Shown piece by piece: positions 15,116-20,300 of a stretch of 20,300 bases of DNA. Where the stretch lies: IMG/VR virus record IMGVR_UViG_2634166457_000006, positions 1 to 20,300 of that record. One strand, 5' to 3'. The DNA comes from a virus. Its lineage: Duplodnaviria > Heunggongvirae > Uroviricota > Caudoviricetes. Every line of letters starts with the position of its first letter. Within the stretch, counting starts at the first letter, position 1. The notes beneath the pieces were generated by a model, which was not told where the DNA came from, did no database searches, and saw nothing but the letters and a program-made list of their open reading frames with translations. The position numbers were made by a program, and so were the translations under genes.

Positions 15116-15481
15116 ATGGCTGAGCTTCGTACTCTTCAGGGCAGAATCAAAACACTGAATACCCGACGGGTGAATATCCTGAAGGGTGAACAGCGTCGTG
15201 TCAGTGGCAGTGCCCGGGTTTCCCTCAAACGTCGTATCTGGCTGAGGGATGCCGGACACTGTTGTCTCTGTGGACGCGTGGTTGACCTTTGTGACAGTGA
15301 ACTCGATCACCGCATTGCACTTCAGTTCGGTGGTGGTAATGAGGAGACGAATCTCTGGACGCTCTGTACCGAATGCCATCGCCAGAAGTCAGCCAGTGAA
15401 GTGGCGAGTGGTATGCCGGACCCGACGTTGCCGGAGGTGTCCGCAGGTAGTGTCAGGGCGGACGACATCACCGGACTGTAA
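15116..15481 (+). CDS. HNH endonuclease (terminase-associated type)
   Basis: CCLCGR...DHRIALQFGG...NLWTLCTECHRQK HNH/zinc motif, located just upstream of a cos-like region and terminase. Confidence 0.75.
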   Translation: MAELRTLQGRIKTLNTRRVNILKGEQRRVSGSARVSLKRRIWLRDAGHCCLCGRVVDLCDSELDHRIALQFGGGNEETNLWTLCTECHRQKSASEVASGMPDPTLPEVSAGSVRADDITGL

Positions 15482-15571: not shown

Positions 15572-15696
15572 CCAGTTAACATGTTAACTGGCTGTCCGGG
15601 CATTTTTGTTATTTTTATCTTTATTATTCAGTTTGTTGCGTGGGAAAAATGTTAACCGGCTTTTTCAGCAAATGTTAACCAGGCAGCAGTTAACAT
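15572..15696. repeat. cos-proximal repeat cluster: 20-bp perfect palindrome CCAGTTAACATGTTAACTGG plus further ATGTTAAC(C) copies in both orientations
   Basis: Palindrome at 15572-15591; additional copies at about 15649-15657, 15672-15680 and inverted at 15689-15696; lies between the HNH and terminase small-subunit genes. Confidence 0.4.
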
Positions 15697-15771: not shown

Positions 15772-16334
15772 GTGCTGACGACGCAAAAACGAAAATTTGC
15801 GCTGGCGCTCATGTCCGGGAAAAACAAAACGGCGTCAGCCATTGCTGCCGGTTATTCGGCGAAGACAGCCAGGGTTAAAGGCTCGCAGCTGGCAAAAGAT
15901 CCGGAAGTGCTCGCGTTTATAGCACGCAAAGAAGGCGAGACGGTGGAGGTGGATGAGGTTCCCGTTTACCGGCAGAAAAAACAGAGCAGGAGAATAAACC
16001 CCGTCGCTGTGAGACGGCTGCAATTCCACAGCCGGACGAAACCAATCCGGAGATGTCACCGCCCATGGTGATGTCTCCTGGTATTGAATATATGGAGGAT
16101 GGTCTTCCCGATCCTGTGAAAGCCATGGGGCGGATCCTGGTGGAAAACCTGAGCATTGACCCTAAACTGGCACTGGATGCAGCCTGGCGTCTGGCGCAGT
16201 TCACGCACCATAAAAAAGGGGATGCCGGTAAAAAATCGGCAAAAGGTGATGCCGCGAAAAAAGCGACTAACCGTTTTGCGGTGCCACCACCACCCCGCCT
16301 GGTGGTGAATAACGATAATGAGGACAGTGGATGA
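15772..16334 (+). CDS. Terminase small subunit, apparently split over two reading frames (15772-16071 and 16053-16334)
   Basis: N-terminal part has the TerS HTH signature (SAIAAGYSAKTARVKGSQL). The second frame is open from 15957 and ends with ATGA coupling to terminase large at 16331. The frames switch near an A6 run at 15976-15981. Confidence 0.5.
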
Positions 16335-17992
16335 TACCTGTGTGGAGTACGGCCTGCCCGGACTGGGCAGCGCGCCTGAAAAAGGGACTGTCGATTATTC
16401 CGGCTCCGATTTATCCGGACCAGGCCGCACATGCCCTGGCGATTTTTAAACAACTGCGGATTGTTGATGCACCGGGCAGCCCGACGTTCGGGGAGTCCTG
16501 TGCACCGTGGGTGTTTGACCTGGTGGCGGCCCTGTTTGGCTCCTACGATGCGCACACCGGTATCCGTCATATAAAGGAAGTGTTCATTCTGATCCCGAAA
16601 AAAAACAGCAAGTCCACACTGGCTGCCGGGATCATGATGACGGCGCTGTTACTGAACTGGCGGCAGGCGGCGGGCTACACCATTCTGGCCCCGACTGTGG
16701 AGGTGGCGGCTAACGCCTTCAACCCTGCCAGGGATATGGTACGACGGGACGATGATCTGGATGACCTCTGTCAGGTGCAGACACATATCCGGACCATCAC
16801 CCACCGGGTGACGGACACCACCCTGAAGGTGGTGGCAGCCGATCCGAATACGGTGTCCGGTATCAAGTCCGTGGGGACACTGATTGATGAACTGTGGTTG
16901 TTTGGCAAGCAGTATAAAGCGGAGGACATGTTACGTGAAGCCATCGGCGGGCTTGCCTCCCGTCCGGAAGGATTTGTGGTGTACACAACCACCCAGTCGA
17001 ATGAGCCGCCAGCCGGAGTGTTCAGACAGAAACTTCAGTACGCCCGGGATGTCCGTGACGGCAAAATTCATGATCCGCACTTTCTGCCGGTGATTTTTGA
17101 GCATCCGCCGGAGATGGTGGAGAGCGGTGAGCACCTGCTGATGGAAAACCTCGCCATGGTTAACCCGAATCTCGGTTATTCGGTGGATGAGGCCTTTCTG
17201 TACCGGGAGTACCGTAAAGCCCGCGAAGCCGGGGAAGAGACCTTCCGGGGGTTCATGTCAAAACACGCCAATGTGGAAATCGGTCTTGCCCTGCGTTCTG
17301 ACCGCTGGGCGGGGGCGGATTTCTGGGAACAACAGGGCATGTGCGTCAGCCTGGACGATATCCTGCTGCGCGCTGATGTGGTTACGGTGGGGATTGACGG
17401 CGGAGGGCTGGATGATCTGCTGGGGATGTACGTGATTGGGCGTGACCGGGAGACCCGCGAATGGCTGGGGTGGGGCCATGCCTGGGCACATGAAACCGCG
17501 GTGGTCAGACGGAAGAGCGAGGCGTCCCGGTTTCAGGATCTTGTTGCCTGTGGAGATATGACCATTGTCCGGCGTGTCGGGGATGACACGGCGGAAGTGG
17601 CGGAATATGTGCGTCGCATTCATGAGGCTGAGTTACTGGACCATATCGGTATTGATCCGTCAGGTGTGGGGCAAATTCTGGATTCACTGGCGGAAGCCGG
17701 GATCCCCGACGGAATTGTGGTGGGGATAAGCCAGGGCTGGAAACTGGGCGGGGCCATCAAAACCACCGAGCGCAAACTGGCTGAAGGGGTGCTGGTGCAT
17801 GGTGGCCAGCCCCTGATGGCCTGGTGTGTCGGCAATGCCCGGGTGGAGCCTAAAGGTAACGCCATTCTTATTACCAAACAGGCCAGCGGACGGGGAAAAA
17901 TTGACCCGCTGATGGCGCTCTTCAATGCGGTCTCCCTGATGTCCCTGAATCCGGAACCGAAAAAGAAAGCGTATGAGGTTTTTTTCATATAA
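16331..17992 (+). CDS. Terminase large subunit (HK97/Terminase_1-like)
   Basis: 553 aa, placed after TerS with ATGA overlap; N-terminal ATPase-like and C-terminal nuclease-like regions. Confidence 0.8.
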   Translation: MIPVWSTACPDWAARLKKGLSIIPAPIYPDQAAHALAIFKQLRIVDAPGSPTFGESCAPWVFDLVAALFGSYDAHTGIRHIKEVFILIPKKNSKSTLAAGIMMTALLLNWRQAAGYTILAPTVEVAANAFNPARDMVRRDDDLDDLCQVQTHIRTITHRVTDTTLKVVAADPNTVSGIKSVGTLIDELWLFGKQYKAEDMLREAIGGLASRPEGFVVYTTTQSNEPPAGVFRQKLQYARDVRDGKIHDPHFLPVIFEHPPEMVESGEHLLMENLAMVNPNLGYSVDEAFLYREYRKAREAGEETFRGFMSKHANVEIGLALRSDRWAGADFWEQQGMCVSLDDILLRADVVTVGIDGGGLDDLLGMYVIGRDRETREWLGWGHAWAHETAVVRRKSEASRFQDLVACGDMTIVRRVGDDTAEVAEYVRRIHEAELLDHIGIDPSGVGQILDSLAEAGIPDGIVVGISQGWKLGGAIKTTERKLAEGVLVHGGQPLMAWCVGNARVEPKGNAILITKQASGRGKIDPLMALFNAVSLMSLNPEPKKKAYEVFFI

Positions 17993-18017
17993 CCCTGTTC
18001 ACCCTGTAACCATCATG

Positions 18018-18040
18018 AACCGCTGCGGCGGTTTTTTTAT
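18018..18040 (+). terminator. Terminator-like hairpin between terminase large and the protease-capsid gene
   Basis: AACCGC-tgcg-GCGGTT hairpin followed by T7. Confidence 0.45.
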
Positions 18041-18055
18041 TTTCAGGAGGCTGAT

Positions 18056-19993
18056 GTGACTCTTAAACGGGCCTGTTCCCTGCTGACGGTGAAATCCTTC
18101 AGTGAGGATGAGCGGGTGATCTCCGGGATTGCGTCAACGCCTTCTCCGGATCGGGATGGGGACATCCTGGAGCCGGAGGGTGCGGAGTTCGGCAGTGCGA
18201 TCCCGTTTCTCTGGCAGCATGACCATTCCCGCCCTGTGGGCCAGTGTACGGTGCGCCGTATCAGGGAAGGGCTGGAAATTACGGCAACGCTGGTGAAGCC
18301 TGTACCGGATATGCCGTCGCAACTGGCAGCCCGACTGGATGAGGCATGGGCAGCCATTAAGACCGGGCTGGTCAGGGGGCTTTCCGTGGGCTTCCGGCCC
18401 CATGAATACACCTTTCTGGACGGAGGCGGACTGCATTTTCTGCGCTGGGAGCTGATGGAGGTGTCTGCTGTCACCGTTCCTGCGAATGCGGAATGCACCA
18501 TCCGGACCATTAAATCTTACGACCGCCCGTTTTCTGCCGCGTCCGGCAACCGGAAACCGGTGGTGAAAATTGCATCTTCTGCCGGCGCTTCGGCACAGTC
18601 AAACACCCTTTTTCATAAGGAAAAGTCAGCAATGAATACTGGTGAACAGATTAAAAGTTTTGAAAACAAGCGTGCGGCGCTGGCAGCCTCCCTTGAGGAG
18701 ATCATGAGCAAGGCCGCAGAAGAAGGCCGCACGCTGGATGTGGAGGAAGAGGAGCACTACGACAACACCACGGCGGAAATCCGCCAGGTGGATGCGCACC
18801 TGAAGCGTCTGCGTGAACTGGAGGCCGGTAAGGCCGCCACGGCGCAGCCGGTGAAACAGGCCGGTAACGGGAATGTGGCAGCAGTGGCTTCAGCGCCGGT
18901 GATCCGTGTTGAGCAGAAACTGGATAAGGGGATTGGCTTTGCCCGCTTTGCCAAATCACTGGCTGCGGCTAAAGGTGTCCGCTCTGAAGCCCTGGAAGTG
19001 GCCCGTCGTCAGTATCCGGATGACAGCCGTCTGCATCATGTCCTGAAATCGGCTGTGGGGGCAGGGACCACCACGGACCCACAGTGGGCAGGCAGCCTGT
19101 CTGAATATCAGGAATATGCGCAGGACTTTATTGATTACCTGCGTCCGCAGACCATTATCGGGCGATTTGGTCAGGGCGGGATCCCTGCACTTCGTCAGGT
19201 GCCGTTCAATATCCGTGTGCACGCCCAGGTGTCCGGCGGTGCTGCCGGCTGGGTGGGACAGGGTAAGGCAAAACCCCTGACGAAATTTGATTTTGAATCC
19301 ATCACCTTCAGTCATGCGAAGGTGGCGGCCATTGCGGTACTGACGGAAGAATTGATCCGTTTTTCCAGCCCGGCTGCTGATGCGCTGGTCCGTAATGCAC
19401 TGGCGGAAGCGGTGGTGGCGCGTCTGGATACCGATTTTGTTGACCCGAAAAAAGCGGCTGTGGCGGATGTCTCCCCGGCGTCCATCACCCATGATGTGAA
19501 GGGTACGGCATCAACCGGTAATCCGGATACGGATGCGGAAGCGGCGTTTGGTCAGTTTGTGGCGGCAAATCTGCAGCCCACCGGTGCGGTATGGCTGATG
19601 TCCAGCACGAATGCTCTTGCGCTGTCCATGCGTAAAAACGCACTGGGTCAGAAGGAATATCCGGACATGACCCTGCTGGGTGGCACCTTCCAGGGGCTGC
19701 CGGTAATTGTCTCCCAGTACGTGGGTGACCAGCTGGTACTGGTGAATGCGCCGGATATTTATCTGGCGGATGACGGCGGTGTGGCAGTGGATATGTCCCG
19801 TGAAGCGTCACTGGAAATGCAGTCTGAGCCGGGCGGCGACAGTACCACGCCGTCGCCGGTGGAGCTGGTCTCCATGTTCCAGACCGGCAGCGTGGCCATC
19901 CGTGCGGAGCGCTGGATCAACTGGCGTCGTCGCCGTACCGCGGCGGTGGCTGTGATCACCGGTGTTAACTACGGCAGTGCGTCCGGCGGCTGA
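18056..19993 (+). CDS. Prohead protease (HK97 S78 family) fused in frame to a major capsid protein with delta/scaffold-like domain
   Basis: N-terminal PFLWQHDHSRPVG, GLSVGFRP and EVSAVTVPANAE match HK97-type prohead protease motifs; a coiled-coil delta-like segment and capsid-sized domain follow. GTG start with AGGAGG SD; internal ATG 18632 with AAGGAA SD. Confidence 0.7.
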   Translation: MTLKRACSLLTVKSFSEDERVISGIASTPSPDRDGDILEPEGAEFGSAIPFLWQHDHSRPVGQCTVRRIREGLEITATLVKPVPDMPSQLAARLDEAWAAIKTGLVRGLSVGFRPHEYTFLDGGGLHFLRWELMEVSAVTVPANAECTIRTIKSYDRPFSAASGNRKPVVKIASSAGASAQSNTLFHKEKSAMNTGEQIKSFENKRAALAASLEEIMSKAAEEGRTLDVEEEEHYDNTTAEIRQVDAHLKRLRELEAGKAATAQPVKQAGNGNVAAVASAPVIRVEQKLDKGIGFARFAKSLAAAKGVRSEALEVARRQYPDDSRLHHVLKSAVGAGTTTDPQWAGSLSEYQEYAQDFIDYLRPQTIIGRFGQGGIPALRQVPFNIRVHAQVSGGAAGWVGQGKAKPLTKFDFESITFSHAKVAAIAVLTEELIRFSSPAADALVRNALAEAVVARLDTDFVDPKKAAVADVSPASITHDVKGTASTGNPDTDAEAAFGQFVAANLQPTGAVWLMSSTNALALSMRKNALGQKEYPDMTLLGGTFQGLPVIVSQYVGDQLVLVNAPDIYLADDGGVAVDMSREASLEMQSEPGGDSTTPSPVELVSMFQTGSVAIRAERWINWRRRRTAAVAVITGVNYGSASGG

Positions 19994-20037
19994 GTCTGAT
20001 GAGGAGGGCGGGAGGTGAGAGCTTCCCGCAGTAACTG

Positions 20038-20253
20038 ATGGCAAAAATCCGATATCTGCAGGGTACACATGATGCCCGGCCCGGGGATATCCGGGATGTC
20101 GCACAGCCGTGTGCGGAGGTGCTGGTTCGCCTGAGGAAGGCGGAGTACATCACAGCGCGACGTCCGGCGGGTCAGAAAAAGAACATGATGCGGAGCATAG
20201 CGAATGTGGAACCTTTTGCGACGAACCCGAAAAAACCAGAAATCAGGACGTGA
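20038..20253 (+). CDS. Hypothetical head-module protein, 71 aa
   Basis: ORF immediately downstream of the capsid gene; weak SD; no family recognised. Confidence 0.3.
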   Translation: MAKIRYLQGTHDARPGDIRDVAQPCAEVLVRLRKAEYITARRPAGQKKNMMRSIANVEPFATNPKKPEIRT

Positions 20254-20300
20254 TGTAAAAGAGGCGGGCTGGACCAGCCTGTTTCAGGCGGTGGCTGAGC

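Follow-up and report, generated by a model that had tools for sequence, protein, structure and literature searches.

A putative internal capsid start in the protease–capsid fusion gene of Pankowvirus-like prophages

Results

A protease and a capsid protein are fused in a single gene

The DNA studied here is a stretch of 20,300 nucleotides, positions 1 to 20,300 of the IMG/VR virus record IMGVR_UViG_2634166457_000006 (Caudoviricetes), which we call the window; its last 5 kb hold the beginning of a lambdoid prophage’s late structural operon. At the centre of this report is one gene of that operon, an open reading frame (ORF) of 645 amino acids (aa) at 18056..19993 on the + strand (the strand of all features below unless stated otherwise), in which a protease, a linker, a putative delta domain and an HK97-fold capsid protein follow one another. 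At the boundary between protease and capsid protein lies an in-frame ATG at 18632, preceded by a Shine–Dalgarno (SD) motif. Judging from how both are conserved among relatives, we consider it likely that this internal start is used for translation, in which case the gene would yield a free 453-aa product (18632..19993), delta domain plus capsid, alongside the full-length fusion.

No stop codon interrupts the frame from 18056 to 19993, and profile searches found a known domain on either side of the boundary: Peptidase_S78 (PF04586) matched aa 48–152 with 33.8 bits (cutoff 21) and Phage_capsid (PF05065) aa 386–635 with 53.4 bits (cutoff 24.2). The PHROG profile phrog_617, ‘major head protein’, was matched over positions 7–626 of 626 (E = 5.9e-259), phrog_4523 (‘major head and protease protein’) more weakly. 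There was also a match to phrog_10 (‘major head protein’), and a weak one to the solved capsid protein 9d9w (E = 0.0019). An earlier reading of the window, made without database searches (the sequence-only reading), had proposed a protease fused to a capsid protein in a single 645-aa ORF and had pointed to profile searches for Peptidase_S78 and HK97 capsid domains; these found both, and the N-terminal domain is a protease match. The ORF is a genuine fusion of Peptidase_S78 and Phage_capsid, and such fusions have been described before.

The protease domain spans aa 1 to ~156 (18056..18523) and aligns with HK97 gp4 at 29% identity over aa 21–156 (BLAST), the alignment ending at gp4 residue 162 of 225. 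S110 aligned directly with gp4 S114, and H55 with H65 only after a one-residue shift of the BLAST alignment by eye. Neither H55 nor S110 varies among 16 homologues, and their gp4 counterparts are reported to be the catalytic residues (Duda et al. 2013). There follows a hypervariable linker (aa ~157–192; 18524..18631), recognisable in alignments by its indels and low conservation, which holds the putative internal ribosome-binding site and is probably disordered, its predicted local distance difference test (pLDDT) scores being 24–38 over aa ~140–193 of an AlphaFold model. Beyond the linker, the model has two long helices at aa 195–222 and 229–262 (18638..18841), where local pLDDT is highest (74–80), and these may form a delta-domain-like scaffolding segment. 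The model came from a shallow 16-sequence alignment, has a mean pLDDT of 42.5 and is too poor for a fold search; it was used for the helices and the linker only. No separate scaffold-like gene was seen between TerL and the connector genes.

At E ≤ 1e-5 the homologue search gave 2648 matches, and nearly all of the best 120 listed carry both domains. Of the 150 top-ranking representatives of clusters built at 50% identity, 145 have the fused architecture (at least 100 aa 5′ of the protease/capsid boundary), most of these being ~630–680 aa long. Since fusion prevails among homologues, we reject an origin of the fused gene as an artefact of a frameshift or lost stop.

The full-length ORF opens with GTG 18056 behind the SD AGGAGG at 18045–18050 (together 18045..18058); in most relatives the corresponding codon is ATG, each with a GGAGG-type SD. 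In the Escherichia coli group only, an out-of-frame ATG-TGA (gATGTGA, 18054–18059) overlaps the GTG start, other lineages having a plain ATG, and this start-stop might lower initiation of the long product.

The ATG at 18632 is conserved together with a ribosome-binding motif

The internal site comprises the SD TAAGGA (18616–18621), a 10-nt spacer and the ATG at 18632, which is codon 193 of the long ORF (18616..18634 overall). The sequence-only reading had singled out this ATG, with its SD read as AAGGAA (18617–18622), as lying at the protease/capsid boundary, and the comparison with relatives strengthens that proposal: the site shows the features expected of a start that is in use. Relatives were collected by scanning one genome per species, which yielded 34 loci, and gene order was read by tblastn with the window’s proteins. 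In all 31 fused loci the codon homologous to 18632 is start-capable (ATG in 29, TTG in locus L021, GTG in locus L024), and M193 is invariant in protein alignments though it stands at the end of a linker filled with substitutions and indels. Every fused locus also has an SD-like motif (AAGGA, TAAGGA, AAGGAGG or GAGGT) 6–10 nt upstream. This motif is kept as nucleotides rather than as a peptide, in three codon registers, and is variously coded as AAG-GAA (K-E), AAA-GGA or AAG-GGA (K-G), CAA-GGA (Q-G), ACA-GGA (T-G), CAA-GAG-GTA (Q-E-V) and AAG-GAG-GGC (K-E-G). Where a glycine codon helps to form the motif it is GGA in 20 of 20 loci, compared with 9.3% of glycine codons ORF-wide.

Duplex energy with the anti-SD was not discriminating in this GC-rich ORF; it was dropped as an SD score and replaced by motif-length and column-wise controls. 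As a control that takes the relatedness of the loci into account, every column of the alignment was scored, and in 12 of them 60% or more of the loci had a codon able to start translation. At the annotated start 17 of 21 loci, and at residue 193 25 of 26, had an SD of 5 nt or longer before the codon; the other ten columns scored 0–5. The surroundings of the internal start are A-rich, with A at 0.41–0.50 over positions −30 to +20 against 0.23 ORF-wide, and within the same ORF the predicted 50-nt fold around it ranks, at the median, among the weakest ~2% of windows. By these computed measures, the site is the only one besides the annotated start to combine a conserved start codon, an SD and an A-rich, weakly structured context.

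The comparison was then widened to the 145 fused cluster representatives, whose identity to the query is 38–54%. In this set M stands at the column of residue 193 in 103 and within 6 residues of it in 24; of the remaining 18, 14 have V or L. Three stand-alone capsid representatives (P0201, P0233 and P0253) begin no more than 1–2 residues from M193, and in two sets of unfused relatives with a matching gene order, the prophages of Snodgrassella and the Burkholderia phage vB_FUB47a, protease and capsid protein are encoded separately and the capsid ATG falls exactly at the M193 position. The N-terminus of the proposed 453-aa product thus matches the starts of separate capsid genes. In Snodgrassella the protease stop is followed 24 nt on by the capsid ATG, with an SD (GAGAGG) before it. 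In vB_FUB47a the junction reads CAATAAGGATTCCTTACGC-ATG, and the protease stop TAA lies inside TAAGGA; the window has the same TAAGGA out of frame (cAT AAG GAa).

The existence of unfused relatives can also be turned against a used start, since the ribosome-binding site could have been inherited from a two-gene ancestor. All capsid subunits would then be made as the 645-aa fusion, the protease would cleave itself out of the polyprotein, and the internal ATG and SD would be an unused relic. Fusions in actinophages are indeed reported as single genes (PMC7302621), and by our own rough estimate the interior of a T=7 procapsid could hold one protease per subunit. A relic would not, however, be expected to persist in a linker saturated with substitutions and indels, whereas here the start codon is retained in 31 of 31 loci, including those where it has changed to GTG or TTG, the SD is retained across three codon registers with the rare GGA in 20 of 20, and the A-rich, low-structure context is retained as well, in lineages down to 32% identity. 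We therefore regard a polyprotein-only pathway as improbable, if still the most serious competitor of a used internal start.

A second alternative takes the conserved AAGGA for something other than a ribosome-binding site: an internal SD-like signal or a peptide signal, such as an inter-domain pause or a K-G/K-E cleavage site. The motif does lie at a domain boundary, where either would make sense, and K-G or K-E recurs in many of the linkers. Yet it is the nucleotides that are conserved while the amino acids vary (K-E, K-G, Q-G, T-G, Q-E-V), a start-capable codon always follows 6–10 nt downstream, and in unfused relatives this very motif serves the capsid gene as its ribosome-binding site. A pause or cleavage signal accordingly strikes us as a very unlikely account of the motif.

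Several points weigh against translation from 18632 and the two-product scheme built on it. The case is drawn from sequence conservation only, and the loci are phylogenetically related, so that the locus counts overstate the number of independent observations. In the window SD and ATG are 10 nt apart, close to the upper limit of customary spacings. The domain boundaries are weakly supported by the AlphaFold model (mean pLDDT 42.5). Protease–scaffold–capsid fusions of actinophages have been described without a second product, and a fusion-only pathway may be viable (PMC7302621). Finally, this particular prophage may make no particles or be unable to package DNA, unless a deletion in its TerS gene, described below, is a sequencing error.

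The portal gene follows the capsid gene in a conserved module

The sequence-only reading had taken the missing portal gene between the terminase and capsid genes as an anomaly. Its observation was correct: TerL and the fusion ORF are only 63 nt apart, no portal lies between them, and the five antisense ORFs tested in the region (98–178 aa, 17620–20104, − strand) have no Pfam match. The anomaly dissolves on the 3′ side of the capsid gene. A portal gene begins inside the window at ATG 20204, 8 nt after the SD GGAG (20192–20195), and its first 32 codons (20204..20300) are cut by the window end; 31 of the 32 residues equal the N-terminus of the portal protein of E. coli ABU 83972, where the protein following the capsid gene has 454 aa and matches PF04860 (E = 1.1e-81). 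In the source scaffold KQ241476.1 (GCA_001186315.2) the window end coincides exactly with a 32-N gap; the sequence picks up again past the gap, and an intact 454-aa portal gene follows there (L041 8487–9851; PF04860, E = 3.9e-81). Of the two fates that had been offered for the portal, a position beyond the window end was therefore essentially right, the gene starting just before it, while loss was wrong; a portal lost or placed on the opposite strand is ruled out by the start at 20204 and the intact gene. Next in the source scaffold come a 299-aa repeat-rich ORF and genes for a head-tail connector, head closure, an HK97-gp10-like protein, tail completion and the tail tube. The portal is present 3′ of the capsid gene, and this arrangement is ordinary and widespread.

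The region is the head/packaging module of a lambdoid (Pankowvirus-like) prophage, with replication genes, a Q antiterminator and lysis genes 5′ of the late operon and the order HNH, TerS, TerL, protease–capsid fusion, small ORF, portal, repeat-rich ORF and head-tail connectors within it. Some 90 records of Stx1/Stx2 phages (genus Pankowvirus) show 93–94% identity over a 5.3-kb region and annotate ‘major head protein/prohead protease’ and then the portal. Nucleotide identity is 93–95% to Stx phages 1717 and Stx2a_WGPS4 and to E. coli prophages, all with the portal annotated directly 3′, and 1252 of 5426 complete E. coli genomes carry the module. The order TerS, TerL, protease–capsid, (small ORF), portal, repeat ORF and connector is kept in ~30 loci of Gamma-, Alpha- and Betaproteobacteria at protein identities of 32–97%: in Enterobacterales and Proteus/Arsenophonus, in the Alphaproteobacteria Reyranella, Chelativorans, Mesorhizobium and Rhodobacterales, and in the Betaproteobacteria Burkholderiaceae, Candidimonas and Snodgrassella. 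A matching gene order is seen in two deposited phages, vB_EcoS_phi330 (97%) and Burkholderia phage vB_FUB47a (39%). The canonical order TerL, portal, protease, capsid was found neither in the window nor in the ~30 related loci. The portal-after-capsid module is thus a stable rearrangement that public records already annotate, and not a defective remnant.

Decay of a defective prophage, in which the portal was lost and the fusion arose as a lost-stop artefact, could call on the frameshifted TerS of this copy and on the lack of a portal between TerL and the capsid gene, and it is already refuted, its residual probability being negligible: the portal runs from 20204 and is intact in the same scaffold, the fusion recurs in 145 of 150 best cluster representatives at 50% identity and in the phage genome vB_EcoS_phi330, and the assembly is indel-prone, so that the TerS frameshift may be an error.

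Two distant loci depart from the common order. In Parasphingorhabdus (L035 4001–5427) a capsid-like match lies 5′ of the protease-like match, and in Sphingosinicella (L037 2809–4339) a portal-like match lies 5′ of the protease, which is the canonical order.

Other features of the module

Just 5′ of the fusion-gene SD is a GC-rich hairpin with a T-run (18017..18044), found by pattern scan. The sequence-only reading had noted a terminator-like hairpin after TerL, and we find it at 18017–18034, a 7-bp stem with a 4-nt loop and the T-run after it. A hairpin and T-run stand at the same place, ~10–15 nt before the SD, in all Enterobacterales loci examined and in the Burkholderiaceae locus L029, with stem and loop sequences that differ somewhat (for example AACCGC/GCGGTT and ACCCGC/GCGGGT); this conservation was judged by eye, RNAalifold on an automatic alignment having recovered 3 pairs only. 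The HK97 record, too, annotates a putative terminator immediately 5′ of its protease gene. We infer an intrinsic terminator that is read through by Q-modified polymerase; the hairpin could serve as terminator, mRNA stabiliser or processing site.

The HNH endonuclease gene (15116..15481; Pfam HNH, E = 1.3e-6, with the same annotation in relatives) lies 5′ of the terminase genes. TGTTAAC occurs in eight copies in the window, five of them within 120 nt between the HNH and TerS genes (15575–15695), including an inverted pair at 15575–15588; the clustered copies are probably terminase-recognition or cos-region repeats. TerL (16331..17992) has 553 aa and matches Pfam TerL_ATPase and TerL_nuclease as well as phrog_9 and phrog_7622.

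TerS (15772..16334) is split into two ORFs, 15772–16071 and 16053–16334, the N-terminal one matching Pfam Terminase_2. DNA alignment with ABU 83972 and Stx2a_WGPS4 traced the split to a 1-nt deletion between 15981 and 15982, where a T is missing after an A6 run (15976–15982). In the source scaffold the gap (L041 8246–8277) is flanked on either side by a copy of the same ~300 nt. The two copies differ by small indels, so the assembly seems prone to such errors and the TerS frameshift loses weight as a biological claim; it may be an assembly or sequencing error.

Between the capsid and portal genes is a conserved small ORF of 71 aa (20038..20253; phrog_829, E = 5.7e-30), which overlaps the portal start by 50 nt and is present at the equivalent place in most Enterobacterales loci. 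Burkholderia phage vB_FUB47a also has an ORF at this position, before its portal gene, and none was detected in the Snodgrassella loci.

At its other end the portal gene is overlapped through ATGA by a tandem-repeat-rich ORF, which has 299 aa in the source genome and 407 aa in ABU 83972, a difference of ~108 aa (portal and repeat ORF together: L003 8907–11491; L041 8487–10747; L001 15523–18107). A weak CBM_5_12-like match at its C-terminus is shifted by the same ~108 aa in the source copy, so the difference lies upstream of the C-terminus, probably in the repeat region. The NCBI Prokaryotic Genome Annotation Pipeline (PGAP) and other annotators label the portal and repeat ORF a ‘frameshifted portal’ or pseudogene. 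In most loci the repeat ORF behaves as a separate conserved gene, yet a single PHROG profile of 859 positions spans both. It could encode a decoration or head-fibre protein, or the recurrent ‘frameshift’ could be programmed.

Discussion

We propose that the fusion gene is a nested gene, one ORF with two products. Initiation at GTG 18056 would give the full-length protein (protease, linker, delta domain and capsid; ~70 kDa by rough estimate) as a minority product, and independent initiation at ATG 18632 would give the 453-aa delta-domain capsid protein alone, in excess, to form the bulk of the shell. Full-length subunits would co-assemble with it by way of the capsid and delta regions common to both, bringing the attached protease inside the procapsid in sub-stoichiometric numbers. 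There, the protease would remove the linkers, the delta domains and itself. That both products are made, and in such a ratio, is our inference, and the assembly and cleavage steps are modelled on HK97 gp4/gp5, lambda C/Nu3 and herpesvirus UL26/UL26.5. In such a scheme the covalent tether would replace a non-covalent targeting segment of gp4, an idea consistent with gp4 beyond residue 162 having no counterpart here except the linker.

Extended to the family, whose sampled members fall into at least 145 protein clusters (50% identity), the proposal becomes that fusion and free capsid are made from two starts, that nested-gene logic has been extended to the capsid itself, and that lineages switch between fused and unfused states when a stop codon is gained or lost in the SD or beside it, as in the TAAGGA of vB_FUB47a. 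We lean towards this broader reading, with somewhat less confidence than we place in the start at 18632. No description of a two-start reading of the family, nor of an internal start in protease–capsid fusions, was found in the literature searched, an earlier mention in Duda et al. 2013 being possible, and the internal start is apparently an undescribed variant of the nested protease/scaffold theme.

The lack of a portal between TerL and the capsid gene is without importance, the order being known and conserved; the internal start matters modestly. If it is true, it would explain how phages with a fused gene avoid one protease per shell subunit, and the nested-gene solution would have been adopted also by phages whose capsid protein contains its own scaffold. 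Members of the phrog_617 family are present in roughly one in four complete E. coli genomes, Stx-converting phages among them. None of the examined records of 1717, Stx2a_WGPS4 and vB_EcoS_phi330 annotates a nested capsid coding sequence, and our analysis suggests that one would be worth adding in annotation pipelines for this family.

Among known systems, the closest are the Pankowvirus members Stx2 phage 1717, Stx2a_WGPS4 and vB_EcoS_phi330, with 93–97% identity and an identical order from HNH to the connectors; the window’s copy differs by its 1-nt TerS deletion. Snodgrassella alvi prophages and vB_FUB47a share the order TerL, protease, capsid, portal and have homologous proteins at 32–39% identity, but in them a stop codon ends the protease gene 13–24 nt before the capsid ATG. 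HK97 (gp1–gp5) shares an S78-type protease, a Phage_capsid-family capsid protein, predicted here to have a helical, delta-like N-terminal segment, the apparent lack of a separate scaffold gene, an HNH-associated terminase and a terminator-like hairpin before the protease gene, and the capsid part of the window’s protein has no significant pairwise BLAST similarity to the HK97 capsid protein. HK97 differs in having TerL, portal, protease and capsid in that order as separate genes, whereas the window has the fusion, with the portal after the capsid.

A protease and an HK97-like capsid protein are joined in one gene also in Microbacterium phages of clusters EE and EL, Arthrobacter phages of clusters AN, AU and AW and the Rhodobacter RcC phages (PMC7302621, PMC8601537). 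These actinophage and Rhodobacter fusions differ from the window’s gene in being unrelated or very distant in sequence. The Microbacterium fusions reportedly keep the canonical order, in the genomes whose order is described.

The nested arrangement that we propose has its precedents in lambda C/Nu3 and in UL26/UL26.5 of herpes simplex virus 1 (HSV-1), where an N-terminal protease is followed by an in-frame internal start from which a C-terminal assembly protein is made in excess, and where the shared C-terminal part carries the protease into the procapsid; Mu-like phages use the nested-gene solution too. The archaeal virus HFTV1 has recently been profiled and follows a nested protease/scaffold scheme in gp17/gp17.5 (bioRxiv 10.64898/2026.09.13.751334). 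With lambda, HSV-1 and HFTV1 the window’s gene shares a single ORF, an N-terminal protease and an in-frame internal start, its two products being predicted from sequence. The window’s protease differs from lambda C in belonging to family S78, and its short product would differ from those of the nested genes in kind: it would be a capsid protein with a built-in delta scaffold (Phage_capsid at aa 386–635), not a free scaffold.

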